Source of the DNA: Eledone cirrhosa
Lineage: Eukaryota
Reading direction: 5' to 3'
Assembly: GCA_964016885.1 (NCBI GenBank)
Contig: OZ024741.1
Location: 327,360,001-327,424,000, forward strand
Length of the DNA stretch: 64,000 bases
A model generated the notes under the pieces. The model did not search any database, was not told the origin of the DNA, and was given only the letters and a program-made list of their open reading frames with translations. The position numbers were made by a program, and so were the translations under genes. Below, one piece after another: positions 4,791 to 64,000 of the stretch. Within the stretch, counting starts at the first letter, position 1, and every line of letters starts with the position of its first letter.

Positions 4791-5342
4791 ACATATATAT
4801 ACAGATGCATACCTATGCCAGCAAATATATAGGTTTTGTCTTATTAACTTTAAGGTTCAATGCATTTGGATGCAGAACAATAATATGAAAGACGTAAAAT
4901 AATAAAATTATAAGTAGATATACTAATTCTTTATAATTATCTCCAAATTATTTTGTCGAGCCAAAATTGGCCAAAACTGCTACTATAGTTCATAGTAACG
5001 GTTCGGCTGCTGTCTTCGTAACAAAACACCCCCTCACTGATTAACCTCGATGTCACGTGATTGATTCTTTTGAATTTGCCACCGACGCCGTAGGCAGTGA
5101 TTTTTTCAATGGCTTGGAACTTAGTCCACACTTTGCTTTTTTCCATCCACTGAATTATTTTTGTATAAGTTCCCTGTGTCCACGCATTGCCTGGAAACTT
5201 AGCTGAGAATAGACTTCCCTGATGACGAAAGGCTTCTCCGTACGTTTCTTCGGAAACTATGTTTATTCCCTTTCAGAAACTAATTAGTTGGAGTGAAATT
5301 CTAGTAAGTAAGTTAATTTTTATAATTTTCTTATTTTACGTC

Positions 5343-5395: not shown

Positions 5396-5772
5396 TATAA
5401 GTATATATACGTACATACATATATGTATACACACGTACAGTAGTATGTATATATACATACATGCACACACATATACATATATGTACGTATGGGTTTACCG
5501 AACATTTATTATAATGTACGGTTTGTTTGTAAACAAACAGCCCGAATTATAGCCGTACAGTGTTCAGCAACCATCGTTGCCATTTTGTTCAACACTGTAA
5601 AAGGAACGATGAACTAGTTTCTAGCTTATTAGCTCTCATCAGCACCATATACCTTCCTGTCAGTTGATTGAACGTTTGAAAGTATATACTTTCCTTATGC
5701 ATATTAACGGCTGAGCAGCCTAATTTGCATATCGAATGAGTTAGTCGGCCGGGTGAACCGAAAACGATAAAT

Positions 5773-6286: not shown

Positions 6287-7150
6287 GAAAACAGAGAAAT
6301 TAATGTGAGCAAGAAGCCAACAGTAATTCATACATATAAGTGACTATTACGTCAAGATGGAAAATATTTAACGTAAGATATGGGAAAATAATTCAATCTC
6401 AATTCAAAAAAAGTCAAGACAGAAATTTTATCCACAGATTTTGTGTAATCCAGGGAAAAAACCTATAGAGTCTTAACTCAGAATAAAATTAAGAGTAAAT
6501 ACCTATCCTTCAATTTGGAAAAATCTACACATGCTCTATATAGTCTTAAAAAGACTATTTCACGAAACTTTTCAGTCGGGTTAGTCACGGTTGGAGTCGT
6601 TCATCAGTAGAGCTCAACACGATAACTAAGTAGCACAGCTAAAATATGCCAAAAGGGAATTTAAAAGCAGGCTGGTTTCACGTCGTGTGGAATTAAGATA
6701 ATAAACACACATGGAGAACAGGGCTAGTGAGGTCAGAATGAGACGAATGACTGTTTACAAGAAACAGCAGTCAAAACATTCCGAAAAAAAATCAACAAAA
6801 ATTATGTGGTTCAGCATAAATCAAAATACAGAGAGAGAGAGAGAGATAGAGGGAGAGAGAGAGATAGCGAGATAGATAGATAGATATGTTTCTTTTATTT
6901 GCCACCAGGGCATCAAAAGTGGGACAAGTACAATGGGGGGAGTTTACAAAACAAGGCGTCCTCAATAAGGAGGAGGCAATAACAATATATAAAAATAAAA
7001 TAAAATATAACAAAAAATATAATTTATAACAAAGTCCTCAATAGAGTGGAGGCGCCTTGGGGGGTCGCACACACCCCCGAAAAAAGTGTGCAACCCTTCT
7101 CCTCGGGAGCACAGAGAAGGGGTGCTCCCTTGGTGTTTCATCTTCCTCAC

Positions 7151-10100
7151 CTATAGTCTGATGTAGAGTGAAGGCCCATTCACACGGGCCATTCTCGCCA
7201 CTTTCACCCATCTTTCATAAAAACGGCTGGGGTGCAGCACCTCTCTCTCCATCCTGATCCTTCTTCCGAAATGATATCGGAAGAAACGGACCAGTTGTTG
7301 GCCAGAGAGAAAGGTGTCTGACCTCAGTCCTTTCAGACGCGTCCACCATACAACCTCTTTCGCCATGGATATTACGCACAGAAACACCGCCTCTCCTTCG
7401 TTTTTGAAGAGGGGAGGCGGCTTGATCGTTACAATAGACTCGGTGGTCAACCGGATCGGTCCCACCCTTGACAGCAGTTGTTCGACATAGCCCCACAGAT
7501 CGGCAATGCCCGAGCAGTGTACCAATACGTGTGCAACCGTTTCCTCGTCGCACACGCATCTGGGACAGATCTTTTTCGATGGGTCCCTACCCGGGCGCCC
7601 GTGTCTGTAGAGCCTTTCTCGAACGGGCAGAGCCCTTCTGTAGCATTGCCAGGCCAGGGACCTCTGTAAGTTATCCATGAGTCCCGGGCTGAATGTCCTA
7701 CCGAACAGGTTGGCCAGTTCGTCTTCCTCCATGCCTAGGGCTTCTCCGAGGGTGTCGTCGCACCTGCTAACCACCAGCCCTCTATAGAATGACGAGGTGG
7801 ATTCTCCACTGACAGCCGGGTCCGCCTGCCAGAGAGCCGTGAGCGCCTGGGCACACACGGTGTGCCAGGCGCCCAGTTTTCTCGGTCTTTGCTTGACCCA
7901 GGATTGCAGCTCGGTGAGTGAGACGAGTCTGGGAAAGGTTCGCCTCACAAACGGGGCCCACACCGGTTGACCGGAGAGGAATACCTGAAGGTGCCGTAGC
8001 CTTAATGCGTGTTTACGTATCATTAGCCACGGCATCCCCAGCCCTCCTTTCGAAGGGTATTGACGGCAGATGGATCTCCTCACCATAGGAACCCGCTTCT
8101 TCCAAAGGAATTGGACGAGTGCGCGCTCCATTTTGGCGAGCGTTTCCCTTAGGCAAGGCACAACGGTCAGGTGGTAGTAGATGACGGACGCTATATAAGT
8201 GTTCGCCACCTCCGCCCGACCTTTCAGGGACAGTTTGCACTCGGCCCACTTCTGGGTCAGTGCAAACACCCTGTTCGTCACCTCACCCCAGTTCTTCTCC
8301 ACCTGGAGGTCTGGTCCGAACCAGACCTCGAGCAACTTCACCGGGCCCTCCGTCCAGCGCCCGACGACGCCATCGGAGGGCATCGATCTGCCCCTTCACG
8401 TGCCGAGTTGCAGACCGATCGACTTGTCCCGGTTCAACTTAGCCCCTGTAAACCTTTCGTACTCCTCCAGTAAGGTGCCGATCGTCCCGATTTCCGAGGC
8501 CGTGGACACCATTACTATTACGTCATCGGCGTAGGCTGACACAGCTTTCCGCAATCCCGGTTCCAACGGGATGCCCTGCAACAACTCCAGCTTCCGCAGC
8601 AGTGGCTCTAGAGTCACTACATACAGAAGGGAGGAGAGAGGGCACTCCTGTCGGATGGACCGCGCGATTTCGAACGGCTCCGAGAGGTAGCCGTTCACCT
8701 TGACCCTAGAGCAGATGCGGCTGCTGTGCATGGCATTGATCCAGCTCCTGAAAACGGGTCCGAAGCCTGCCGCCGCTAACACCGCGTCCAGGTAACCATG
8801 GTCGACCCTATCGAATGCCTTAGATTGATCCAAGTTGATCTGGGCCCCACCAAAGCCGGGTTCGTTCCCAACCCTCTCTATGATGTATCGTATGAGGTGG
8901 AGGTTATCGTGGATGGACCTGGACGGGATAGCACATGTCTGCGCATCTCCCACCAGGTTGCCCACGACAACCGCCAACCTCTTTGCTAGCACCTTGGCCA
9001 AAATCTGTAACTCTGTATTTAGCAGAGTTATGGGCCTGAAATTATTTATATCGTATCCCTTGTTCTCGTCCTTCCTCACTAGCGTGACTACGCCCTTGGT
9101 CACAGCACAGGGAATTCTCCCGTTCTGTTGCCAGTTGCAGTAGACCGCCTCGACGAGTTTGGGGAACAAGTCCGGCATAGCTAGATATAGTTCGTATGGA
9201 AGACATTCGAGACCCGGGGATTTGCGTTTGCCGCATTGGCTCAGCACGTCCTCTATCTCAGCGGCTGAAATCGGCTCCTCGCAGGTTTTCGCCTCCCAGG
9301 CCGTCGAAGTATGGACCGAATTCCACGTCCCCAACCGGCCCACCGCCCCTTTCGAACAATCCGGCAAAGTGCTTTTGAAAAGCCTCGCACATCTGCTTAG
9401 GTTCAAGGATGACCCATCCATCCTGGTCTCGCAAAGACCGGATAGTGGATCTGCTCCCTCTTTTGGCTTCTGTCACGCGGGCCCAGCTAACAGCTTTGGT
9501 CCCCTCGTTTCCCAGAGCACGTATTTTGCTTCGGACGATGCAGCCTTCGTGTTTCGCGTCGAAGAACTGGCCCAGGGCCGTTCTCGACGCTAGCCCTCTG
9601 GCCACGTCGCCGCTTCTAATTGCCTCTTCTGCACTATCTACCAACTCCCCTTCCTTCCTATTTCTATTGGAAGCTAACTCCTTACTAAATTCTATAGAGA
9701 CTACTCTAATCTCTCTTTTGAGAGATCCCCACCACCTGCTGTTGACGATGGCGCCCGTCAACCGCTCCTTAACTAAAGTGCTAATCCGGTTCCTGTAAGC
9801 CTTACTTGCCGGTAAGGACAAGTTGAGCTTCCAGTAACCGGGTCCCTGTCTATGAGTTCTGTCAAGGTTGACCATGCAGGTCACTAATTTGTGGTCTGAA
9901 TAGCCAACCATGCGCATTTTTGGACAACTTAAAAAGTCCTTATCTTTAATTCTAACTAAGAACCTATCTAGGTAAGACCTAGATGATCCGCAACGATTTG
10001 CCCAAGTCCAGGTTGGCGCAGTCGGAAAATCTAGTCGATATCTATCGGCCAGGTCAAATCGACCGATTAACCCTTTGAGGCTATTACACCCCTCTCTATC

Positions 10101-10571
10101 GGGACAGGCCCCTACGTAGTCCCAGCGTGCATCTAGGATACCATTCCAGTCCCCCACTAATAGCAAGGAGTGGGACGTCCCTACAAAAGTCTCCAGACGA
10201 TGGAAGAAGTCCGGCCGCATTGATCCGAAAGGGCCGTAGGCGGCTACCAACCTAAACGCTCCGCCTTTACCACTGCCAAGGTCCAGAACCACTAGTCGAC
10301 CCTCCGGGTCCAAATGTACCATCTGTGTTGCGAGACCCAGATGTTTTTGCAGCAGAACGACAACTCCACCCCCACCTCCGGGCTGACAGAGAGATGCGTG
10401 CATCTCAAAGTCATCAAAGGTGGGGGCCAGCTGTCGCACGTTGCTGATCCGGGCCTCGCAAATAACCATCACATCTATACGTTGTGACCTGAGGTCATTT
10501 AGAAGCATTGCTTGCTTCCAAGTTGAGCCCAGGCCACGCGCATTTAAACAGCCTACTCTTAGCATAGCCAT
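7151..10571 (-). pseudogene. LINE ORF2: AP endonuclease, reverse transcriptase, C-terminal zinc knuckle (one frameshift near 9290-9300, one in-frame stop at 8396)
   Basis: APE motifs LNARGL, GDWN, SYLDRF, SDH; RT motifs NFRPITLLN, LDQSKAFDRVDH, RQECPLS, YADD; C-terminal CPRC..EETVAHVLVHC. Confidence 0.93.
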
Positions 10572-10595
10572 GTTGGTGGTGAAGAGAAAAGGCAC

Positions 10596-12236
10596 TTACC
10601 TCTCTGCGTCCCGGGTATCGGGCAGCACAATTTCCATTAGGGTGTGGGATGGGTTGATGGGTGGGGTGGTGGTTTGTGGAAGTGTAGGGGCATCAGTGTG
10701 TTGTGTGGTTGGGGAGCTTGGAGTTGTGTGGGGATTTGGCGAGGGGGTGGGGTAGTTTTTTAGGAGGACGCGGTTAATGGGCCCGACGCAGGGGGGACCC
10801 ACGTCCTCTTTAAAGTTGTTTTTTTAAGTTTTATAGGTGTCCTGTGGGGCCTTAATCATTTTGAGGGGGGGGGGAAATCCCCTGCCTGGGTGAAGTTAGG
10901 CCCTTGTGTTTTTATTAGATTGTTGTTGTACACAATGTTTAACAGTTTTTTGTTTCTTGTGTTTATGTATGTGTATGCATGTTTTTGTTTTTGTGTGGTG
11001 TTTTTTGTTTGCTGTTGTTGTGAGCTCTTTTGTGTTGGTGTCAGTGTTATGTTTTGGGGAGGGGTTGTTTTCATTTGTGTGTCTGAGGTGTGTTTTCTTT
11101 TTTTTCTTTTGATTGTGTGGAAGTGCTCCTCCTCGTCTGACGACGAACTAGGGTCATCTTCGGCGTTGGAGGGGAGGGGTATATTTTCGGGTTGTGTTTG
11201 CGGTGCGGGTGTTTTGGAAATTGTTTTTGTTTTTTGAGTGGACGGGATGGGTTGGACATTGTTTTGTTTTGGTTTGAGCTGTGGTGGTTGTTTTTGTAGT
11301 GGTAGTTGTGGTGATTGTGTTGGATGTGCAGTTGTTGGTGGTGTAGGCAGGATTGGGGTTTTCTTATTAAGTTGGGGACACACAGCCCACAGGTGACATC
11401 TGGTTCCGCAGAGGTAACACGAGGGCCGTCTACCCTCAACGGTAATGTTGATGAAGGTTAGATCATCCAGTATGACGCGTTCAGGGATCTGGGCGATCCT
11501 TTCGGGCCTCATTTGAACTATAAGTTCGAGGCTCGTTCCACTGAACGCGTCACCCAATGCCTTTCCCATGGACACCAGCATGTCATCCTCCAGGTCCAGG
11601 AAACCTGTCAAAACCCACCATATGTCCATAATCGGCAGGATGGTGTGGATTTTTATTTTTTGTGTTCTTCTACCCATGTACGTAGGGTAGAAGGTGCATG
11701 CGGTGGATGTGATTGGTTTGATGGACAGTTTCACTGCTGTGTCCCTGTCCTTCATGAGAATGGATAGACTCCCGTAGAGTCTATTCTTCTGAATGAAGGT
11801 GATGTCCTTCATGACGTCTTTTAAAACCAGCTCTATCTCACTCTGTGATGGTTGAGCTGGTTTTTTACTTTTGTTCGAGATTGTCCTAAACATGACCGTG
11901 TTTTGGAGTCTCTGGCTTTTTAGTTCCGGGGGGGGGGGGGATTGTGAATGAACCATTTTCTCCGTACACTATATATTTTTTCGCATCTGCCAGTAGCTCC
12001 TTCGCTTTGGTTATATCTACTGGCAGATAGTCGAGGGTTTTCCTTGTCGTCTCGGCGAAGGAGAAATTTTGTTTGTTTGTGTTGTTGTTGTCGTTGGTGG
12101 TGTTGTTGTTATCATTGTTGTTGTCACCGTTATTGGTCTTGTTGTTGTTGTTATTGTTATTGGTGTTGTTTTCGTCCGTCGCATTGTTGTTGTTGTTGCT
12201 GTTGCTGGTGCCGTTGGTTCTTTGGGTTGTTGCCAT
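10596..12236 (-). pseudogene. LINE ORF1 (gag-like) split by frameshifts at two poly-C/G runs
   Basis: Segments 12236-~11935, ~11935-~10870 and 10802-10596 abut; CX2CX4HX4C knuckle CYLCGTRCHLWAVC; Asn-rich N-terminus; stop lies just upstream of ORF2. Confidence 0.8.
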
Positions 12237-12332
12237 GGCAACGTCAAGATAGATAGATAGATAGATAGAGAGATAGAGAGAGAGAGAGAAAGAGAGATAG
12301 AGATAGAGATAGATAGAGAGAGAGAGAGAGTG

Positions 12333-12442
<110 letters not shown>

Positions 12443-13244: not shown

Positions 13245-13870
13245 GATATTAATAAATGGATACTATATTTATAAAACGATATTTATTTCATTATACATAT
13301 TTCAAGGATACCATGTTAATTTATGTTAACTCAACTTAATATGACATGACTTAAGGTTTTCGTTCTCTCCCCCTCTCTCTATCTCTATATTTCTCTCTCT
13401 TGATTTTTTCTCTCTGTCTGGTGGTTGGATATCTCTCTGTTGTTTTTCTCTGTTTTCTTTTTTTCTTTTTTCTTTCTTCTTTTTTCTTTATTTATCTCTC
13501 CCTTTCTTTTCTCCACTTTTATCTCTCTCGGTTTCTCTCTCTCTCCGTTTTTTTCCGTCTCCTTAACATAACGACTTACAAAAATAAACAAACCACTATC
13601 CTGATGTCTTCCAAAAGTAACGGTCGCATTTTGAAAGGGTACGTCAATGTTTATTTATAAAACTGGTATATATTGTATTTTGTCTGATGAAGGCATACCA
13701 TAATTTAACATGGTATCCTTGAAATATGTATAATGAATTAAATATGGTTTTATAAATATAGTTTCCATTAATAATATCGTATATTTACTCCAAATACATG
13801 TCGAGTGCTTTATATCAGTTATAAAAATATTTGCTTGTTGTATCCCAACAATTTAAATAGAACTTTTGCA
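13242..13870. mobile_element. HHR family D element with short inverted arm
   Basis: 13243-13325 is the reverse complement of 13699-13780; plus-strand HHR CTGATGA(13684)-AGGcATACCAT..ATGGTATCCTT-GAAATATGTATA; TA flanks. Confidence 0.8.
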
Positions 13871-14546: not shown

Positions 14547-17104
<2,558 letters not shown>

Positions 17105-18680: not shown

Positions 18681-18706
18681 TATATATATATATATATATA
18701 TATATG

Positions 18707-19200
18707 AGCTGTCAACACATATATAAATATATATGCAAAAGTTCTATTTAAATTGTTGGGATACAACAAGCAAATATTTTTATAACTGATATAAAGCACT
18801 CAACAAATATTTGGAGTAAACATACGATATTAACAAATGGAAACTATATTTATAAAACCATATTTATTTTATTATACATATTTCAAGGACACCACGTTAA
18901 AATATGGTGTGCTTTCATCAGACAAAATACAATATAGATCAGTTTTATAAATAAATATTGACATACCCTTAAAAAATGCAACCATTACTGTTGGAAGCTC
19001 CCGGATAGATGACTATCCGGGAGCTTCCAACAGTAATGGTTGCATTTTTTAAGGGTATGTCAATATTTATTTATAAAACTGATCTATATTGTATTTTGTC
19101 TGATGAAAGCACACCATATTTTAACGTGGTGTCCTTGAAATATGTATAATAAAATAAATATGGTTTTATAAATATAGTTTCTGTTTGTTAATATCGTATA
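18707..19200. mobile_element. HHR family D near-perfect fold-back (arms 18822-19008 and 19013-19199, 4-nt loop)
   Basis: ~187-bp inverted repeat centred on CCGGATAG-atga-CTATCCGG; left arm extends a further ~115 bp; TA flanks. Confidence 0.9.
19084..19163 (+). ncRNA. Type I hammerhead ribozyme (family D); mirror copy on minus at 18858-18937
   Basis: ~15-bp stem I with one bulge (CTATATTgTATTTTGT / ATAAAATAAATATGG), CTGATGA, stem II AAGcACACCAT / GTGGTGTcCTT, GAAA, quasi-palindromic stem III, AUA triplet. Confidence 0.85.
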
Positions 19201-19974: not shown

Positions 19975-21229
19975 ACTGAACGATAGTACCGATTGTCCAG
20001 CCAAAACGCTCACCAACATGGAGCGCGTGCTCTTCCAATTCCTTTGGAAGAAACGTGCTCCTTTGGTAAGAAGATCCATCTGCTGCCAACACCCTTCAAA
20101 CGGAGGGCTGGGGTGCCGTGGCTGACGATTCGCAAACACCCGCTCAGACTGCGGCACCTCCACGTATTTCTCACCAGACAACCGGTGTGGGCCCCATTCG
20201 TGAGGCGAGCCTTCCCACGACTCATCTCGCTGACCCCGCTGCAGACCTGGCTCAAGCAAAGACCGAGGAAAATGGGCGACTGGCATATCGAATTTGTTCA
20301 GGCGCTCACAGTCCTCTGGCAAACGGACCCGGCGATCAGTGGAGACTCCACTTCGACATTCTATAGAGGGTTGGTCCGCAGCATGTGCGACGACACGCCC
20401 GGAGAAACTCTAGGCGTAGAGGAGGACGAACTGGCCAGCCTGTTCGGTAGGACCTTAAGCCCGGGACCAATCGACAACTTCCAAAAGTCCCTGGCCTGAC
20501 AGTGCTACTGAGGAGCTCTACCGGTTCGAGACAAGATCTACAGACACGGGCGCCCGGGTAGGGACCCTTCGAAAAAGATCTGTCCGAGATGCGTGCGCGA
20601 CGAGGAAATCGTCGCGCACGCATTTGTACACCGCCTGGGGGTTACTGACCTGTGGGGCTATGTAGAACGACTATTGTTGCGGGTAGGACAAATCCAGTTG
20701 ACCACCGAGTCCATTGTCATGATCAAACCGCCACCCTCCTTCAAAAACGAGGGAGAGGCGGTTTTCCTATGTGTTATGGCTATGGTGAAAGAGATTATAT
20801 GGTGGACGAGGTTAAAAGAGCTGAGGTCAGACACCTTTCTTTCCAGCGAGCAACTGATTCGTTTTTTCAAATATCATTTTGGAAGAAGAATCTGGATGGA
20901 GAGAGAGGTGCTGTATCCCAGCAAATTTTATAAAAGGTGGGTGAATGTGGCAAAGCTGACCCGAGTGGTTGGGCCTTCTCTCTATATAAGCCTGTAGGTT
21001 GAGGAAAAAGAGGAAGATAGGAAGGGAGTACTCACTCTTGGTGCTCCTGGAGATGAGGGTTGTACATTTTTTCGGGGTGTGTACAACCCCTGTGTAACAC
21101 CTCCCACCTATTGGGGATTTCAATTGTTATTTGCTATTGTATTAATAGTTTCATTTTCATATAACTGTATGTAAACTCCCCACTTGGATTTGTCCCCTTC
21201 TTTTATGCCCTTGTGGCTAATAAAGAAAT
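19975..21229 (+). mobile_element. 5'-truncated, decayed copy of the same Tx1-like LINE family
   Basis: Translations match the 7151-8383 ORF (PVWAPFVRR, KPPPSFKNEGEAVFLCV); 3' AATAAAGAAA; candidate 10-bp TSD TTATCTATAT at 19965-19974 and 21230-21239. Confidence 0.9.
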
Positions 21230-21423: not shown

Positions 21424-22175
21424 AGTTGGAATAGGATGAAACGAAATTTCATTTCTCACTCTTAGTACGGCACTTACTTAAATGTAAGTATGTATGTATA
21501 CGTACATACATATATATATACAGACGTACAGTAGCATGCATATATATATATATACATATATATATATACACATACAGGTACACATATATATATATGTACG
21601 TATCAGTTTAGCGGACGTTTATTATAACGCCCGCTTTGTCCGTTTGTAAACAAACGGACAGCCTGATTTATGCCGTACGGTGTTAAGGCAACCACGTCAC
21701 CTTTTTGATCATCACTGACACAGGAACGATGTACTAGTTTCAAGCTTCTTAGCTATCATCAGCACCGTATACCCTTCTGCCAGATGGTTGAACGTTCGAA
21801 AGTATATACTTTCCTTATGAAAATTAACGGCTCAGCAGCCTAATTTGCATATCGAGTGAGTTCAGTCGGCCAGGCGCCCCTAAAACGATAAGTTGGAATA
21901 GGATGAAACGAAATTTCATTTCTCACTCTTAGTACGGCACTTACTTCGAGCGTTCAACCATCTGGCAGAAGGGTATACGGTGCTGATGATAGCTAAGAAG
22001 CTTGAAACTAGTACATCGTTCCTGTGTCAGTGTTGAAAAAAAGGTGACGTGGTTGCCTTAACACCGTACGGCATAAATCAGGCTGTCCGTTTGTTTACAA
22101 ACAGACTAAGCGGGTGTTATAATAAACGTCCGCTAAACTGATACGTACATATATATATGTGTATCTGTATGTATA

Positions 22176-25509: not shown

Positions 25510-25543
<34 letters not shown>

Positions 25544-25545
<2 letters not shown>

Positions 25546-25762
25546 CGAAGGAAATGTGGTAAGGAACCAGGTGGACCATAACGCACCAAAGTACTCAATA
25601 CTTAGGGTAGTAGAGTGGGTAATAGGAACAAGTAAGACCCCGACGGCTGAGCTCAAGCCGTTTCGACTGCTAATTCTGGACTGAATGACAGAATAAATTT
25701 TCATTCAGTCCAGAATTAGCCGTCGAAACGGCTTGAGCTCAGGTGTCGGGGTCTTACTTGTT

Positions 25763-25766
<4 letters not shown>
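25544..25766. mobile_element. Family E fold-back insert in (TA)n
   Basis: 66-bp arms 25623-25688 and 25701-25766; homologues at 39788-39983, 49626-49700 and 53768-53971. Confidence 0.85.
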
Positions 25767-25818
<52 letters not shown>

Positions 25819-29229: not shown

Positions 29230-31330
29230 TAGGTGGATTTGAATGGTACTTCATGAGAATTTGACGAGTTTCGTTTGTACAAATGGATTCCTAGATACAG
29301 ATGGCGTGTGGTTTGACTTAGTCGGCATATTAAGTCGTCTGTTTTAATGTATGTTTTGAATGTGTTATGTTTAAGTGTAAATGTTACATTGGGACATTTT
29401 CTATTTTGAAGTTATTATTTAATCAATATTTTTGCTTCATATCATAGAATAATTTCAATTTTTACTCATCGTAATTGTTTGCTGCCGATTCATATTTTCC
29501 GTTATAGGTAACCGGGTTAATGGTGTGACATTAGTTGTTTATTAAGTCCGTTATATGTAATCGAGTATTGGGCGAATTGTCTGTCTGAAATGATTACCGT
29601 GGACAGATGAACCACTGTTATTCATAATATTAATAAGTTATCATCAAAGATTTCTGATAATTGATTTCATTGTATAATTTACAATTGATTTGTGGCTACA
29701 TATATGATGACACTTTGGAACATGACGAAATCTAGGGATTTCAATGCTTGCTGTTCAATGATGAATGGATAGAAATCAATTATATCAAATTGGATGAATG
29801 TGTATTTGTGTTTAACTGGGATATGTGCACATTTTATAAAAGAAGTGCCGCTTGTTCCTAAATTACTGTTGTTTGTATTATCCAAACATTCGTTTCTATG
29901 TATGTATCAATACATATATATGCCAGTATATTAACGTTTTTCCGTATTGTATCTATGTATCTTTCCATATTCGTATGTATGTATACATAAATAGCTTCAT
30001 TACATGAAGTGGTTGTTACGTGGTCGTAATTTTTCATTATGATATATGCGCCAGTCTTCTGAGTTTTTCGTCAATAAATTTCTCCTTTGAATGCACTGTT
30101 GAAGCCGTTACACATTTACTCAAGATGCCACGTGACTGAAAATAGAATCCATTCCAGATCATCTAATGACATGTATCGTATTAATTTCTCTCGGGTCATT
30201 TTTTGTTGGTTTAATAGAATCAATTATAAAATACCTCATAAATTCATGTTTAAAGTCATACAGTTATGGCTTAGTGGATAGAGCGCTGGGTTTGCAATTG
30301 TGCGGTTGTGAGGTCAATACTCGGGATGCGCTGTGTCCTTGAGAAAGACACTTCATTTCACGTTGCTCAAGTTTACACAGCTGTAGAAATGAGTTGCGAC
30401 TTCTCTGGTGCTAAACTGTATCGGTCTTAACATTTCCCTTGGTCAACATCAGTGACGTGGAGACCAGTATGCAAGGGCCATTCCTGGTCTTCCATAACCC
30501 AACTTTCCCAGTCTTGTGCCTGAAGGGGAACTTTCTTCGTGCAAATAGCATGTTCCCTTATGACGGAAGGAGGTCTTTACCCTTTATACATTTATTTGTT
30601 TTAATGCGACTAATTCTACGCTGTTATTTACGTAAGGGATCAACCTAAGTATTAGTCATGTTATTTATAGAACTTAACCTGTTGTTACAAGCATTTGTAT
30701 GAAATAGAAAATTATTTATTTAGGATCAATGCACTCTTACTTCAAATCCTGTGGAAGTCCCTTTCACCATTCATTATTTCTAAGCCGATAATAAAAGTAA
30801 CAGTCAATTATTGTAGTGTTTTTCTATGTATTCTTTCTATCTCTCTATATCATATTATCTCGCACTCACTTCGTCTGGATAAAAATCGTTTTTTTCTGGC
30901 GTGGAGAGGGATTTAAAAAACATATTCAAATCACTTTGTAATATAGGACGGCATCCCTACGAGACCATGGAAAAGTATGCCCCCTTTACTTTCCTATTGT
31001 GATGTGGGTGTTTCTGTTAAATATTTAATAATTTGATAATGATACCATTTTTCATTAGGTTATTGTACACATTACAGCATTGAAGCTACTCTCAGAAGTA
31101 GGTGAGTGTTGCGTTTGACATTACAAACGTTTTGTATGATTCTCGAATATCATTTATGTTGTTTACGAGGTTTGACTGGAAGGCTTTGTTTGAAATTCTT
31201 GAACTTTATGTTCTCTATCTATTTGAAATGTCAGCTTCGATGGTTTCGAGTGTTTCATTACTGCTGGGCATAATTTACTCATGAAGTGTAGTAGGGATTT
31301 TTTCGTATATGTTTGTAGGTAAGTATATAT
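29230..31330 (-). pseudogene. Highly decayed Penelope-like RT remnant interrupted by a SINE
   Basis: FIQFDIIDFYPFI (PLE RT motif) in ORF 29679-29885; minus strand near 31230-31100 reads IENIKFK..AFQSNLVNNINDIRES, like the PLE pre-RT region. Confidence 0.55.
30265..30590 (+). mobile_element. tRNA-derived SINE
   Basis: TGGCTTAGTGGATAGAGCG A-box, GGTCAATACTC B-box-like, TGTGTCCTTGAGAAAGACACTT core, 3' GACGGAAGGAGGTCTTTACCCTTTA. Confidence 0.75.
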
Positions 31331-32399: not shown

Positions 32400-34230
32400 T
32401 TTTTACTATTATTATTATTAGTTACTAGCTTTGAAATAGTGGAACAAGAATCTATGGTAATGTGGACACGTGTAGAAGATCTCTGATTTCCTATTTAGTA
32501 GGCTAAGGTTAGAGTGAATAATATTTTTAGACTCGAGAATGCAAAGGTTACGAAATTTGTTAGGTCGTCTATATGAAGGGGCCTTAGCTATCACTTCCCA
32601 TTTTAAGGTATATGGTATGTTACTTGATTTTAATGAGTGTATGTATGTGGATAGTAAGGTTACGTTGCTAAGTTTAGGGTTTCTGAACGAATGAAGGTGT
32701 CAAATATATCTGGTCTTAAAGCTATTCGATGTTGAGCCTATATACTTTCGAGATATGATTAACAGTTACAGTACGGGAATAGACAATGTCTTTAATTAGG
32801 CAGTTCTTATTTAATAGACATGTCTTGTTAGGCCTACAATTACAATTGTTTTGTTTACTAGTATACTGGTTAACGGGGTATGCGTTTGAGTGGTTGTTTC
32901 TGTTTCTACTTCTAGTATTATGATTATGGTGAGTATTATTACTATTGGTATTATTAGTGTGACTTGCTGTATGGTTTTGTACTGTGTTATTGTTCAGATT
33001 ATTTCTATGCTGGACATTATTACTTTGGTGTAATTTGAAGAACTCTTTAATCTTTCTATTGTTGGTGTTGGCTATATGATCTGCTATGTTAGGTGTGGTG
33101 GAGTAGGATATGTTAATTGTGTTTTTGTTAAATAGATTGTGGTATTTATGGTTAGTTGGGAAGTTTTTGTCTAGAATAGAGAAGAAAGCTTTAGGTATGT
33201 TTGTTGATACATTTAAGTTGCGCGGAGGGTTAAAGAATGTGCTACTTCTCCTTCTATTCTTCTTATGCTTTCTTATTCATACTACTGTTTAGTGTGGTGT
33301 TAGGTTCCTTCTTATCTATGTTTTTCTTTCTGTGGTGTTTCTTAGGGTTATTGCTGTGGTGTAATTTAACTTTTTTATGGCGCCCTTTGTATAGGAGTCA
33401 GGATTTTCAATACTATGATCATATTTACTTTTATTCATGGCCATGGTGTGTGAAATTATATTAGGTTGTCTATGGGTGGTTGAAGATTTAGGTTTAAATT
33501 TAAATTTATCTCTAAGGCCGGAACGGACTAAGGCTTCATTATAGTATTGGTAGTTACGATTAAATGTATTCTCGTTGTAAGAAAGGCTAGAGATTCTATT
33601 AAATACCCCTTTAAAGATTAAGGTCAGTACAGATTTGAAGTGGTTAGAGTTGGTATTAACATAGAAAGGCTTTTCATTAGGTTTATTATAAGGTGTGTAT
33701 TTTTTAGAGTCTAAGTAGAGAGTGACGTCCAGGAAGTTAACATTTTCGCTGTTTTTATCTAAAGTGATACCTAAGTTATAGTTTTTAAATATTTTATGTA
33801 ATTGTTTTCTAGTTCTTTCTATATTTAACGTTTTATAGTCTAAGAGGAAGAGTGCGTCGTCTCGGTAGAGGCCACCGTTGAGGTAAGGTAGGTTCTTGTG
33901 TATTTCGATTAAGAGAAATAGACCTACTAAGTCGGTTACCTGTGCCGAGACACTAGATCCCATGGTGATATCAAAGTTGTTCGGTGTATTCTTGCGGGTC
34001 CATAGTTGGTCTTCAAATTTAATTATTGTTTTCCTGGCCGCAAGGATTATATCTACCTGGGATCTATTGAGTTCAACATTGTTCATCGCCATTATTAATG
34101 CTTTATTTAGGAGGATAGGCGAAATGGAAGTGTAGTAGGAGTTTATATCAAATTGCATGAATTTCTTATTATTATCCTCATTAATACCACTAAACCATTC
34201 GATTACTTCACTAGTGTTTCCAAGAGGTTA
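32400..34230 (-). pseudogene. Penelope-like element RT plus GIY-YIG endonuclease, 5'-truncated and frameshifted
   Basis: QFDINSYYTSI, FDITMGS, GGLYRDDAL, NFLDVTL and KPNEKPFYVNTNSNH in ORF 33316-34158; downstream frames FFNPP..KAFFSILDKNFP..ISYSTTPNI, CNC, YIGST, NLCILE. Confidence 0.9.
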
Positions 34231-39235: not shown

Positions 39236-39622
39236 TGGTATTAGTTTTGGTGCTCTGAAATAGCGATGAATACATGAATGTATATATAGTATATTTGGCA
39301 ATATACTGTATGTTTAATTAAAAATATTTTGAAGACTATTCACTGTGAGTTTAAAAGTCGTGACTTAGTCAATAACTTATTCTTGGCAAAAGCAAAGGAG
39401 AGTAATTGACAGTCCTGTTTCCCGCTCATTACTATTCACCCCTTCGCTTCTGCTGGATTCTTATAGAATTCCATTCATATTTAAGAGCTGATTAATCAGA
39501 GCGGTTACCGGTTCAGCAAAAATTTGGTATTAGTATTAGTGCTGGGAAATATAGATGTATACATGAATGTATGTATAGTATATTTGACAATACTAATACC
39601 TAATTCTTGCAGTATATTGCCA
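39236..39622 (-). mobile_element. Diverged relative of family A with ~290-nt terminal redundancy
   Basis: 39236-39304 recurs at 39525-39593; shares CTGATTA..CAGAGCGGTT.CCGGT with A; HHR 3' half GAAACAGGACTGTC on minus with the 5' core deleted; short inverted tail at 39610-39622. Confidence 0.65.
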
Positions 39623-39757: not shown

Positions 39758-39787
39758 ACACACACACACACAAATATATATATATAT

Positions 39788-39979
39788 AACAAAGGAATTT
39801 TGGCAAGGAACCAGATGGACCATAACGCACCAGAGTACTCAATGTTTAGGGTAGTAGAGTGGGAAATAGGTAAAAGTATGACCTCGACGGCAGAGCTCAA
39901 GCCGTTTCGACGGCTATTTCTGGAGTCCAGAAACAGCCGTCGAAACGGCTTGAACTCTGTCATAGGGGTTATACTTTTT

Positions 39980-39983
<4 letters not shown>
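39788..39983. mobile_element. Family E fold-back copy
   Basis: Arms centred on CTGGA-g-TCCAG (39925); same outer ends as 25544-25766. Confidence 0.82.
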
Positions 39984-40028
<45 letters not shown>

Positions 40029-41183: not shown

Positions 41184-46988
<5,805 letters not shown>

Positions 46989-47289: not shown

Positions 47290-48257
<968 letters not shown>

Positions 48258-49612: not shown

Positions 49613-49625
49613 TATATATATGTAT

Positions 49626-49965
49626 AACGAAGGAAATGTGGTAAGGAACCAGGTGGACCATAACGCACCAAAGTACTCAATACTTAGGGTAGTAGAGTGG
49701 TGTCGGATGCTTAAAGCGTCCGTATGCGGTAGGCCGTTTGAGCACTCGATCCTCTTACAGAGCAGAGTATAATATCACATAAGAAACGGAGAACCAGTGG
49801 TGTGACGAGTTAAAATTTATTAGACATATTACAATCGTTTCTCTGGCGACCAGCTCGAGGCGCGATCGATATAGGGATCGAACCTGACTCTGAAGTTGCA
49901 AGCTCCCCAGATACGTCTCGATTCTTCGGAACGGAGTTTCCAAATGCTGGAAACTCTGCTTCGTG
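49626..49965 (-). mobile_element. Mosaic insert made of an E end, a G-like segment and F, with a short fold-back
   Basis: 49626-49700 = E; 49727-49770 resembles 31497-31541; 49773-49944 = F reversed; GAGTTTCCA-aatgc-TGGAAACTC fold-back. Confidence 0.7.
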
Positions 49966-51739: not shown

Positions 51740-51832
<93 letters not shown>

Positions 51833-52157
51833 CATATATATATAATAATGAGTAGGAGTGTTTATATCTATAAGTATATATGCATTACGTCGGTATATAT
51901 ATGTATATATGTATGCATCTACGAATAAACACTTAATGGGGATACAGAATGAATCACATTTACGTTATTTACTGTCGTCTTCTAGAGTGAGTTTTTCTAT
52001 TGTAATTATATATTCTTTACACATATCGCATTAATATTAATCTACTATTTCATTTATTTATTATCTGGTCTATTTGCCATTGTATGGATAGTTTTGACAT
52101 GCGGGGCGGGAGTCTGGATGTCTTGATACTCGCAAAATATAGATATATAGATATGTA

Positions 52158-52269
<112 letters not shown>

Positions 52270-52345
52270 TATACATATATATATACATTTATATATATAT
52301 ATACATATATATACATATATATATAAATATATATATATATATATG

Positions 52346-52414
<69 letters not shown>

Positions 52415-52418
<4 letters not shown>

Positions 52419-52674
52419 GAATGTATATATAGTGTATTTTGCAATACACTGTATGCTTAATTAAAAGCATTTCAAAGACTTTATGTTATAGTTTTAGAGT
52501 AGTGACAGTCTCACTTACTTTAAATTTTCAGCAAACAGGTGGAGATAAAGCTGACAGAGCTATGTATCGTACTGATTGGTACTTATCAAAGCCAAGTACC
52601 CCACCTGTTTTCTGAAAATCATGAATGTTTGGTTCTTATAGAATTTATAGTAATAATCAGGAACTGATTATACA
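52415..52674 (-). mobile_element. HHR family A arm
   Basis: Matches 424-677; minus-strand HHR TTGATAA-GTAC..GTAC-GATAC (A14 mutated). Confidence 0.85.
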
Positions 52675-53712
52675 GTGTGTTTCTAAATATATTGTTAATA
52701 ACTCCCTCTGGTCGAGCAATCTTTGAAGTGTGGGGACAACTGGAAAGCTTCCATTACTCATACTTCTAGCCTTCTTCACCACCTCTTCTGCGGCCTCGAT
52801 ATGAATACCCCCTCCGCCTCCGTGGTATTTTCTTCGTGGTTATAAGTGGCTTAGCTCTGTTTCTCGACCGTTATATCGCGTGACTATCCCCCCCTCCGCC
52901 TTTTGGGATTCTTTCTCACGTCGTGTAGACGCGTTCTTGAGACTAGTAAAATGAGGTATCCTCTTAATAAGTCGGCAGACCTCGCAGGGACTCTATATCT
53001 TTATGATATATTGTTTTTGTTTATGCCACGAAACTACGTAGTCGAGGAATTTAGGAGCAGTTTAGGTATGATACATTTTATTACTAATTATATCTAAATG
53101 TTTCTTCTCTCTTCATAATGTATTTTTAACTCTGATACTGGTTCAGTCTAGTTCAACTGAATTGGTCTGTCCCGGTCATTCATTGAGCAACATCGGTGAA
53201 GTTGGCACCCTTAACTCACAGTTGGGTGCGGATGCATTCATGTATATATGTGTGTGTCCGCATGTATCTGTGTGTTTCTAAATATATTGTTAATAACTCC
53301 CTCTGGTCGAGCAATCTTTGAAGTGTGGGGACAACTGGAAAGCTTCCATTACTCATACTTCTAGCCTTCTTCACCACCTCTTCTGCGGCCTCGATATGAA
53401 TACCCCCTCCGCCTCCGTGGTATTTTCTTCGTGGTTATAAGAGGCTTAGCTCTGTTTCTCGACCGTTATATCGCGTGACTATCTCCCCCTCCGCCTTTTG
53501 GGATTCTTTCTCACGTCGTGTAGACGGGTTCTTGAGACTAGTAAAATGAGGTATCCTCTTGATAAGTCGGCAGACCTCGCAGGGACTCTATATCTTTATG
53601 ATATATTGTTTTTGTTTATGCCACGAAACTACGTAGTCGAGGAATTTAGGAGCAGTTTAGGTATGATACATTTTATTACAAATTATATCTAAATGTTTCT
53701 TCTCTCTTCATA

Positions 53713-53718
<6 letters not shown>
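52674..53718 (+). mobile_element. HHR family K: ~1.75 tandem monomers of 595 nt (retrozyme-like)
   Basis: 52674-53122 is repeated at 53270-53717 with few substitutions; one HHR per monomer. Confidence 0.85.
53554..53643 (+). ncRNA. Type I hammerhead ribozyme, U3-A8 core, long stem II (family K); upstream copy at 52959-53048 has G5A
   Basis: TCCTC-TTGATAA-GTcGGCAGAC...GTTTaTGCCAC-GAAACTACGTAGTC-GAGGA; palindromic stem III ACTACGTAGT, GUC triplet. Confidence 0.8.
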
Positions 53719-53767
<49 letters not shown>

Positions 53768-53772
<5 letters not shown>

Positions 53773-53970
53773 ACGAGTAGGAGCCCGACGGCTAATCTCA
53801 AGCCGTCTCGGCGGCTAGTTCTGGACTAAATTAGTCCAGAATTAGCCGTCGAAACGGCTTGAGCTCAGCCGTCGTGGTCCTACTCGTTCCTATTACCCAC
53901 TCTACTACCCTAAGTATTGAGTACATTGGTGCGTTATGGTCCATCTGGTTCCTTACCACATTTCCTTCGT

Positions 53971-53971
<1 letters not shown>
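53768..53971. mobile_element. Family E fold-back copy (opposite orientation)
   Basis: Arms centred on CTGGACTAA-a-TTAGTCCAG (53830); same outer ends as the other E copies. Confidence 0.82.
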
Positions 53972-54047
<76 letters not shown>

Positions 54048-58819: not shown

Positions 58820-59200
58820 AACAAACCCTGATTACAAGCAAGATTGGTAAAACGATCTAACTGTAGACAGCCTGAAAAGTTTTCCCTAGAAGGTAAATGC
58901 CTATATAAGAACATAGTGTATAACTGTGAGGTAAATTCCATCAAAAGCACACAAAATATATCGATGCAACAGCAAACAATTTCAATAAACGACAGATGCA
59001 CAAATCAAATGACCTCACGAAAACGTCAGTACCTCGCAGCAGATATATGTCCATAACGTTACAAATACGTATAGATAACACTATTTATTCAGACAACACA
59101 ATTAATCACAACACAGAGGTAATAATTACTACTTATGAAATACGTAATATAATAAACAGCAAAATATTGGGTCGTCCAGTATGAAATTTGTAGATATTTG
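58820..59200 (+). pseudogene. Decayed PLE linker/GIY-YIG fragment
   Basis: SNCRQPEKFSLEGKCLYKNIVYNCEV resembles the CNC..CPL..KCL..VVY segment at 44110-44180. Confidence 0.6.
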
Positions 59201-63488: not shown

Positions 63489-64000
63489 ATCATGGATTAC
63501 TTTACTGATTACAGAAGAGAGTGATCATGAATTACTTTACTGATTACAGAAGAGAGTGATCATGGATTACTTTACTGATTACAGATGAGAGTGATCATGG
63601 ATTACTTTACTGATTACAGAAGAGAGTGATCATGGATTACTTTACTGATTACAGAAGAGAGTGACCATGGATTACTTTACTGATTACAGAAGAGAGTGAT
63701 CATGGATTACTTTACTGATTACAGAAGAGAGTGATCATGGATTACTTTACTGATTACAGAAGAGAGTGATCATGGATTACTTTACTGATTACAGATGAGA
63801 GTGATCATGGATTACTTTACTGATTACAGAAGAGAGTGATCATGGATTACTTTACTGATTACAGAAGAGAGTGATCGTGGATTACTTTACTGATTACAGA
63901 TGAGAGTGATCATGGATTACTTTACTGATTACAGATGAGAGTGATCATGGATTACTTTACTGATTACAGATGAGAGTGATCATGGATTACTTTACTGATT
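63489..64000. repeat. 35-bp tandem minisatellite, >14 copies, runs off the window
   Basis: Unit GTGATCATGGATTACTTTACTGATTACAGA(A/T)GAGA, head-to-tail with no spacers. Confidence 0.95.

Follow-up and report, generated by a model that had tools for sequence, protein, structure and literature searches.

A 595-nt hammerhead repeat in Eledone cirrhosa, probably a non-autonomous retrozyme of the Penelope-type class

Results

Organisation of the K locus

The window, by which we mean the whole 64,000-nt stretch of DNA that was analysed, contains a non-coding repeat, here called family K, lying 5'-to-5' with an inverted piece of a second repeat family, J, between two (TA)n tracts (Table 1). Sequence comparison revealed a direct repeat at an offset of exactly 595 nt, in which the 449 nt at 52675–53123 recur at 53270–53718 with five mismatches (52847/53442, 52889/53484, 52932/53527, 52966/53561 and 53085/53680). 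The locus is composed of one whole 595-nt unit followed head-to-tail by a 449-nt part, giving 1044 nt or 1.75 units. A preliminary description of this DNA had placed two hammerhead motifs exactly 595 nt apart, which is borne out by the 449-nt direct repeat at that offset, and had recognised a 595-nt unit between the two predicted cleavage sites, which we also find. Its reading of the locus as tandem 595-nt monomers holds for the head-to-tail 595-nt unit and fails for an array, there being 1.75 units only, and the start that it gave, 52674, should be moved to 52675, where the repeat begins.

The longest stop-to-stop frame overlapping K spans 80 amino acids, and a tblastn comparison of 22 proteins of Penelope-type elements (PLEs), all of one group, with K gave no match at E-values up to 1. 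Non-coding, with a GC content of 42% (under 45%) and a length of 595 nt that lies in the known size range, K has the sequence characteristics of a non-LTR retrozyme, and its head-to-tail unit carries one type I hammerhead motif.

Table 1. Features of the K locus and its flanks, and PLE-type sequences in the window
Feature	Position	Strand	Basis
Family K whole unit (449-nt repeated and 146-nt unique part), non-coding	52675–53269	+	Repeat comparison; joint 53269→52675 in X4 and X10
Family K second, partial unit, 449 nt; stops at the family's recurrent 3' end	53270–53718	+	Repeat comparison; X1 contig ends
146-nt part of K unit, occurring once at the locus	53124–53269	+	Covered in X1, X4 and X10
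Predicted unit-length RNA between two predicted cleavage sites, 595 nt, 42% GC	53044–53638	+	Folding
Hammerhead motif of type I in copy 1; U3-A8 core carries the private G5A (52966); cleavage predicted after 53043	52959–53048	+	Descriptor; X1 depth
Hammerhead motif of type I in copy 2; U3-A8 core intact at 53559–53565, stem II 53566–53624, palindromic stem III 53628–53637; predicted cleavage after 53638	53554–53643	+	Descriptor; folding; shuffles
(TA)n tract, 3' end of J piece, left flank	52137–52414	.	Repeat scan
(TA)n tract forming the right flank, at the 3' end of K; shares 3 nt (TAT) with the sequence of the unit itself	53719–53769	.	Repeat scan
Inverted piece of family J, about 260 nt (family also at 427–677 and 678–1051), 5'-to-5' with K, shared base G 52675	52417–52675	−	Sequence comparison
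Decayed U3-A8 hammerhead motif, family J, GAAA box reads GATA	52549–52593	−	Descriptor; family letter at 52566 in 99.9% of X1 depth
Broken PLE-type gene, reverse transcriptase and C-terminal endonuclease-like part	32418–34227	−	ESM Atlas neighbours; homologues
Broken PLE-type gene, reverse transcriptase and C-terminal endonuclease-like part	43750–44515	+	ESM Atlas neighbours; homologues
Weak PLE-type match	29697–29825	−	Homologue search
Weak PLE-type match	58847–59017	+	Homologue search

The hammerhead motifs

Each K motif has a 5-bp stem I, a 59-nt stem II region, a GAAA box and a GUC site, with C17 at 53043 and 53638, and stem III is a perfect 10-nt palindrome over positions 15.1–16.1. The cores read TTAATAA at 52964–52970 (copy 1, G5A) and TTGATAA at 53559–53565 (copy 2). 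Copy 2 thus has all the parts of a type I hammerhead, namely the core boxes, the 3-8 pair, GAAA, an NUH site and three stems, and copy 1 departs from it at G5. The G5A change inactivates hammerheads. A 2026 survey calls an element active when it has two consecutive complete hammerheads, an arrangement that the K locus lacks because of G5A in copy 1; other K loci may possess it, the family letter at this position being G.

A strict descriptor identified three sites in the real window, K copy 2 among them. In 100 block-wise dinucleotide shuffles the mean was 0.02 sites, and none of these shuffles produced a match whose palindrome reached 10 nt. Because descriptor count and palindrome length both exceed those of the shuffles, we take the K motif to be beyond chance. 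Rfam gave no match, and hence no hammerhead, across the whole 64-kb window at the gathering score; the 37 weak matches that it returned for 52400–54000 at E-values up to 10 include no hammerhead. Since the Rfam models do not score the K motif, its identification as a hammerhead is based on the descriptors and on folding. A descriptor scan of the minus strand within K found no hammerhead.

As regards the preliminary description, the 10-nt palindromic stem III and the stem II region of about 59 nt that it gave for both copies were recovered by descriptor and by folding, and its assignment of an intact TTGATAA core to copy 2 and of G5A to copy 1 was correct, the latter being a private decay in a family with G in 99.98% of the depth of run X1. 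The word intact is apt for the core sequence of copy 2; the site belonging to that copy is not necessarily the one that would be cut, as a dimer-type hammerhead is predicted to cross sites. K is, as had been stated, unrelated to the window's other U3-A8 family, with no sequence likeness outside the core. To call the U3-A8 core rare was an overstatement, for it is a published PLE variant, with about 1,300 matches reported in PLEs of Schistosoma mansoni (Cervera and de la Pena 2014, PMC4209133). The anatomy of a PLE-type insertion and the 5'-to-5' joining of K to the other U3-A8 family are additions to the preliminary description.

Predicted folding of K RNA

Folding calculations suggest that stem III is poorly stable by itself: its energy as a hairpin is +1.5 kcal/mol, and it is paired about 8–11% in the monomer. 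When two K motifs are folded together, the minimum-energy structure is an exact double hammerhead, at −60.1 kcal/mol versus −46.4 kcal/mol for two single hammerheads. In the locus transcript, the double form is again better than two singles, by 8–10 kcal/mol. Two results count against the model: the double hammerhead of the locus transcript lies 7.7–8.8 kcal/mol above a minimum that already pairs both palindromes, and with longer flanks the single hammerhead fold lies 5.3–7.5 kcal/mol above the minimum. Overall, the K hammerheads are predicted to work only in pairs. In the dimer geometry each core would cut the site of the other copy, so that G5A in copy 1 would silence 53638 and the copy 2 core would cut 53043; with a predicted cut at 53043 only, the K locus would no longer release unit-length RNA. 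The private G5A offers a natural test of whether cleavage involves a dimer or a monomer: under the dimer fold, 53043 should be cut and 53638 should remain uncut.

The 595-nt unit folded as a circle has a minimum free energy of −180.1 kcal/mol, against −139.2 ± 6.9 kcal/mol for its shuffles, none of 60 being as low. The circular z-scores are −5.9 and −6.1 for the sense strand and −0.3 for the antisense strand, and those of four control stretches range from −2.8 to +1.3 (15 shuffles each). The high self-pairing of retrozyme unit RNA is thus seen for K in prediction. This predicted structure, confined to the sense strand, points to selection acting on the sense RNA.

The K family in public sequencing contigs

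From 24 listed runs, contigs of runs X1, X4 and X10, together with the raw reads of X22, were placed on 52440–53269, which contains the unit of copy 1 and not that of copy 2. X1 is possibly the source of the window itself and so does not constitute an independent sample. It provided 2,183 contigs on this stretch, with a summed depth of 1.0–5.7 × 10^5 in bins wholly inside the K unit, a quantity that is no copy number yet is far above that of one locus. The depth is uneven, with a peak at 52804–53139, and in the 146-nt spacer it is 1.0–2.6 × 10^5, of the same order as in the repeat. A short plus-strand frame across K is broken by a 2-nt deletion in 30% of the X1 depth.

At 52966, G accounts for 442,078 of 442,156 X1 depth units, and G is also found in single contigs of X4 and X10. 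Because of this near-uniformity in X1, we regard G5A as a private decay of copy 1. At the U3 and A8 positions, no alternative letter reaches 5% in X1. Besides 52966, the motif contains two common X1 variants, both of which keep the fold: a G·U to A-U change in stem II at 52987 and a loop II deletion at 53002. Among the five differences between the window copies, three are private to copy 1 and two sit in copy 2. Both copies have A at 52768/53363, where 99.8% of X1 has C and the A allele amounts to 0.2%; this shared A implies one template or one homogeneous source. On these sequence data, G5A is private to the window copy, U3-A8 is the family state and the K family is abundant.

Among the X1 loose ends listed, eight contigs leave the K unit at 53123 to enter (AT)n, which is the same end as that of the window copy at 53718, and this is the single K 3' end to be seen there. 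Contigs that run from the end of the unit back to its start, 53269→52675, occur at depth 8 in X4 and at depth 10 in X10; X1 has this joint too, with two letters changed there. One 620-nt contig of X4 closes the K unit on itself.

The flanking J piece and the J/K junction

The J piece has 17 private differences in 243 columns. Positions that depart from the letter held by at least 95% of X1 depth number 8 of 236 in the J piece versus 5 of 595 in the first K unit (Fisher p 0.012), and the same 8 of 236 can be set against 5 of 898 between the K copies (Fisher p 0.0015). On this comparison, the J piece looks older than K. There is no TA at the J/K junction, the two families sharing one G only, and the J arm breaks off within one base of the point at which the J/J pair does so, at 677. 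Four head-to-head hammerhead pairs were located in the window: J/K and three that involve a single family each (593/842, 18921/19100 and 21762/21983). K is accordingly adjoined at its 5' side by an inverted hammerhead element, but one of another family and more diverged. No contig spanning J/K was found among 17 of about 2,200 contig pieces, and a search of literature listings found no description of a mixed-family inverted PLE junction.

Elsewhere in the window, family J forms a head-to-head inverted pair between TA tracts at 427–1051, with a unit of about 321 nt, U3-A8 hammerheads at 593 (−, decayed) and 842 (+, intact) and a circular fold z-score of −6.0. A diverged relative lies at 39240–39592. 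One end of the J pair has about 35–40 extra bases, and this spacing of the J ends resembles the 30–40 nt PLE tail produced from two reverse transcription start sites.

PLE remnants and other repeats in the window

The PLE-type fragments of the window are 34–47% identical to 22 database proteins. Pfam did not name these fragments, five of seven proteins compared with it having no family, and it named none above cut-off in six relatives, one of which gave a weak GIY-YIG match (E 0.012). The PLE call is based on the ESM Atlas neighbours, the homologues and PLE motifs; the clade is presumably Hydra. Comparison within the window gave no sequence likeness between K and the PLE remnants. Judged by their sequence, the window PLE genes are a candidate for the kind of element that would help K to move.

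Several further repeats surround these. A C3-G8 hammerhead family with a 30-nt stem II and an 8-nt AT-rich stem III occupies 18706–19199, 13595–13869 and 45875–46116, its motifs forming an inverted pair at 18921 (−) and 19100 (+), the ends of which differ in length, while 13684 and 45928 mark single copies. Another inverted pair between TA tracts, at 21596–22148, has intact hammerheads at 21762 (−) and 21983 (+) with a 6-nt palindromic stem III, and a related piece is found at 5493–5770. Single hammerhead-like motifs of other sequence families are at 5219 (+) and 25180 (+). A TA-flanked hairpin family, seen at 53770–53970, 25535–25818, 39779–40026, 49615–49700 and 51788–51858, consists of a near-perfect hairpin of 115–145 nt and a conserved one-sided tail of 80 nt, the loops differing among copies; the hairpin at 53768–53895 has a z-score of −17.8, no hammerhead was found in the family, which could represent MITEs or PLE-type insertions of the fold-back kind.

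A near-complete LINE-type retrotransposon at 7061–12440 (−) has a gag-like frame, an endonuclease and a reverse transcriptase with Pfam RVT_1, and a hammerhead-like motif at 6607 (−) lies just beyond its 3' end; a LINE-type fragment at 19987–21090 (+) is 80% identical near 20,500. The fragment at 15965–16686 (+) resembles a DNA transposase, presumably hAT-like, with no Pfam match above cut-off. The window further contains a duplication at 41272–43468 (offset about 1,185; unique parts 99.5–100% identical), which is either very recent or an assembly repeat, a 172-nt tandem repeat at 47340–47939 whose units are 76% alike, and at 63489–64000 a 35-nt satellite that runs off the window end.

K in runs from other organisms

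The stretch, or part of it, occurs in 20 of the 24 listed runs, with no RNA run listed among them; the 16 rows with a share of at least 0.25 carry 13 organism codes, and the four with a share under 0.2 were left out of use. In X4 and X10, which are from other organisms, the depth of K is 8–13 versus 10^5 in X1, and the letters are variants that also occur in X1. X10 contains, in addition, diverged J-like and K-like pieces at depth 2. The raw DNA run X22, from organism C, had no K reads in 1,938 million letters, which is a weak test. Pattern matches to K from metagenome (one, L001), viral (none) and prokaryote (16) sequences were considered as relatives and rejected: none of the 17 aligns beyond the pattern, the best alignment being 20–22 nt, and we take them as chance.

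Discussion

Origin and mobilisation of K

We consider it probable that the K locus arose by recent insertion of 1.75 units of an abundant non-coding repeat of 595 nt, and that this repeat is a non-autonomous non-LTR retrozyme which uses the reverse transcriptase and endonuclease of a PLE. In the proposed mechanism, a multi-unit K transcript would be made, in which two hammerheads would pair through their 10-nt palindromes; the double hammerhead, as folding predicts, would cut out a 595-nt RNA. A host ligase may then close this RNA into a compact circle, by analogy with other animal retrozymes. A PLE enzyme would nick (TA)n, and reverse transcription would begin inside the unit, at a constant position 80 nt beyond the cleavage site, and continue for 1.75 rounds; the fixed end, the TA target and the 1.75 units are observed at K. 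The five observed differences between the units, G5A included, would have been gained after insertion. The circle, which we infer from other animals, is the weakest step.

A partial tandem with a fixed 3' end in a (TA)n target, as found for K, is characteristic of elements mobilised by PLEs. PLEs are described as recognisable by partial tandems, a neighbouring copy in inverse orientation, a tail and a bias towards (TA)n (PMC8557442), and the PLE of the anole starts reverse transcription internally on AT-rich nicks in vitro (PMC11167929). In that system, reported as the sole PLE so tested, hammerhead cleavage was dispensable for insertion in vitro and uncut RNA was the main template (PMC11167929). 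Among nine predicted Xenopus retrozyme dimers, eight were without cleavage (bioRxiv 10.64898/2026.07.22.740005).

Such observations bring into view the same kind of element without a circle: the template of the PLE enzyme would be a multi-unit transcript that had not been cut, and the hammerhead would be weak, assisted by protein or active at a later stage. We hold this possible, at well under even chances. It would accord with the normal insertion of anole PLE hammerhead mutants and the reported lack of RNA-seq reads ending at the cleavage site (PMC11167929), with the poor cleavage described for PLE hammerheads (PMC4209133), with an insertion end that lies 80 nt off the predicted cleavage site and not at it, and with an active fold above the energy minimum in long context. 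The closed contig also counts against the circle, being equally expected from a tandem DNA repeat. Against copying without a circle, no core variant reaches 5% in a family of very great depth, the common variants preserve the fold, and predicted structure in the unit is limited to its sense strand. Moreover, the 0.2% allele of X1 found in both units is most simply derived from one circle copied round, although a homogeneous source array also fits. The fixed end past the predicted cleavage site and the rare allele in both units bear, for this reason, on whether PLEs copy circles or uncut multimers.

The manner in which J and K came together is a separate matter. One insertion might have produced both, the PLE enzyme cutting both (TA)n strands, copying J and K RNAs and joining their 5' ends, and this we regard as somewhat unlikely. 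The order (TA)n–J(−)–K(+)–(TA)n repeats the layout of those three head-to-head pairs of the window that involve one family each, the junction is clean, the J arm stops where the J/J pair breaks, and the anole PLE, predicted to be a dimer, cleaves both strands and extends each of them (PMC11167929). The greater divergence of the J piece (by both Fisher comparisons) and its decayed hammerhead speak for different ages, PLEs tend to insert beside existing copies (PMC6765202), and the arrangement is known from a single locus only. We favour two events, in which K landed beside an older J copy, and find them about twice as credible as one insertion from two templates. A single insertion, if true, would mean that each arm of an inverted PLE insertion is copied from a template of its own, and mixed-family head-to-head junctions, if common in the genome, would show how such insertions form.

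K could also be an internally deleted autonomous PLE, with two 449-nt pseudo-LTRs around a 146-nt remnant, arising as a rare by-product of an abundant parent. The repeat-spacer-repeat layout would fit, as would the uneven X1 depth, highest at 52804–53139, and retrozymes have been reported to derive from pseudo-LTRs (bioRxiv 10.64898/2026.07.22.740005). This origin is nevertheless improbable. The spacer is as deep, in order of magnitude, as the repeat; the K unit closes on itself in X4 and X10; none of six listed X1 loose ends (120 further ends exist) falls inside the spacer; and the 22 PLE-type proteins of one group have no match on K.

The near-identical units in runs under at least 13 organism codes, and the K unit joined end to start in X4 and X10, might be taken as signs of a circular K RNA that passes from one organism to another by infection or horizontal transfer. 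We think this very improbable, and equally so the combined proposal of an animal retrozyme circle that is active at present and also spreads among organisms. The low depth and the X1-type letters are those of trace DNA of a very high-copy repeat, the antisense strand of K has neither hammerhead nor excess structure, and K is integrated in DNA with PLE hallmarks. Judged from the sequence, trace DNA of a high-copy repeat accounts better than transfer for K in the runs of other organisms; a search of literature listings found no treatment of retrozyme transfer between organisms. An assembly artefact, or a local DNA duplication without an RNA step, has the least to commend it and appears already largely refuted: PLE tandem and inverted structures do trouble assemblies (PMC8557442) and the region is rich in microsatellites, but five substitutions separate the K copies, the repeat-spacer-repeat order follows the circular order of the family, and the head-to-tail joint recurs in other runs, being present in contigs of all three contig runs, so that the artefact which the preliminary description had named as a hazard to its duplication is not found.

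Comparison with known systems

Tandem units with type I hammerheads are the mark of metazoan non-LTR retrozymes (PMC7229834), which are reported to measure 51–972 bp and to derive from PLE terminal repeats (bioRxiv 10.64898/2026.07.22.740005). As these are described (Cervera and de la Pena 2020, PMC7229834; Li, Clavereau and Pollet 2026, bioRxiv 10.64898/2026.07.22.740005), they share with K a non-coding head-to-tail unit with one type I hammerhead each, a GC content under 45%, a predicted self-paired circle, high copy number and coexisting PLEs. At 595 nt, K is inside the size range of the 2026 survey and above the 170–400 nt of the RNA circles measured in animals (PMC7229834). It differs from the accounts of both sources in its U3-A8 core, 5-bp stem I and extended 59-nt stem II, which replace the canonical 6-bp/4-bp motif, and in being a dispersed (TA)n-targeted 1.75-mer whose locus, with one core broken, is not active by the 2026 definition. 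The literature listings likewise contained no treatment of crustacean retrozymes and no activity data for U3-A8 hammerheads.

The hammerheads of PLE pseudo-LTRs, those of Schistosoma Cercyon included, are in several respects closer. As set out in PMC4209133, they have the U3-A8 core, with UUGAUAA in S. mansoni family 3, a short stem I, a palindromic helix III (in PLE motifs of fly, rotifer, shrimp and mosquito), a dimer design and nearby motifs on the opposite strand. K departs from that description in being without a reading frame, in having a 10-nt palindrome where stem III is minimal, in a stem II far above the 6–8 bp given there and in the absence of an extra base after position 9. Insertions of endonuclease-bearing PLEs (Craig et al. 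2021, PMC8557442; Frangieh et al. 2024, PMC11167929) are described with the partial tandem, (TA)n target and fixed internal 3' end that we see at K. They also have an inverted copy adjacent at the 5' end, where K has an inverted neighbour from another family, and a 30–40 nt tail, the like of which is seen for J.

Two other classes were considered and rejected. Plant LTR retrozymes resemble K in having two direct repeats, each with a hammerhead, and a circle size of 600–1000 nt, but as described they have type III hammerheads, whereas K has type I topology, repeat ends that are not TG..CA, low GC and a (TA)n target. A viroid-like replicating RNA is at odds with the lack of a minus-strand hammerhead, the antisense z-score of −0.3 and the integration of K in DNA. 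Dimeric PLE hammerheads are said to have been studied by Lunse et al.

Overall, K is real, recent and ordinary in kind, probably one more retrozyme family of the known Penelope-type class. Two things in it are somewhat unusual: a stand-alone unit that combines the U3-A8 core with a long stem II, and the junction of two families.
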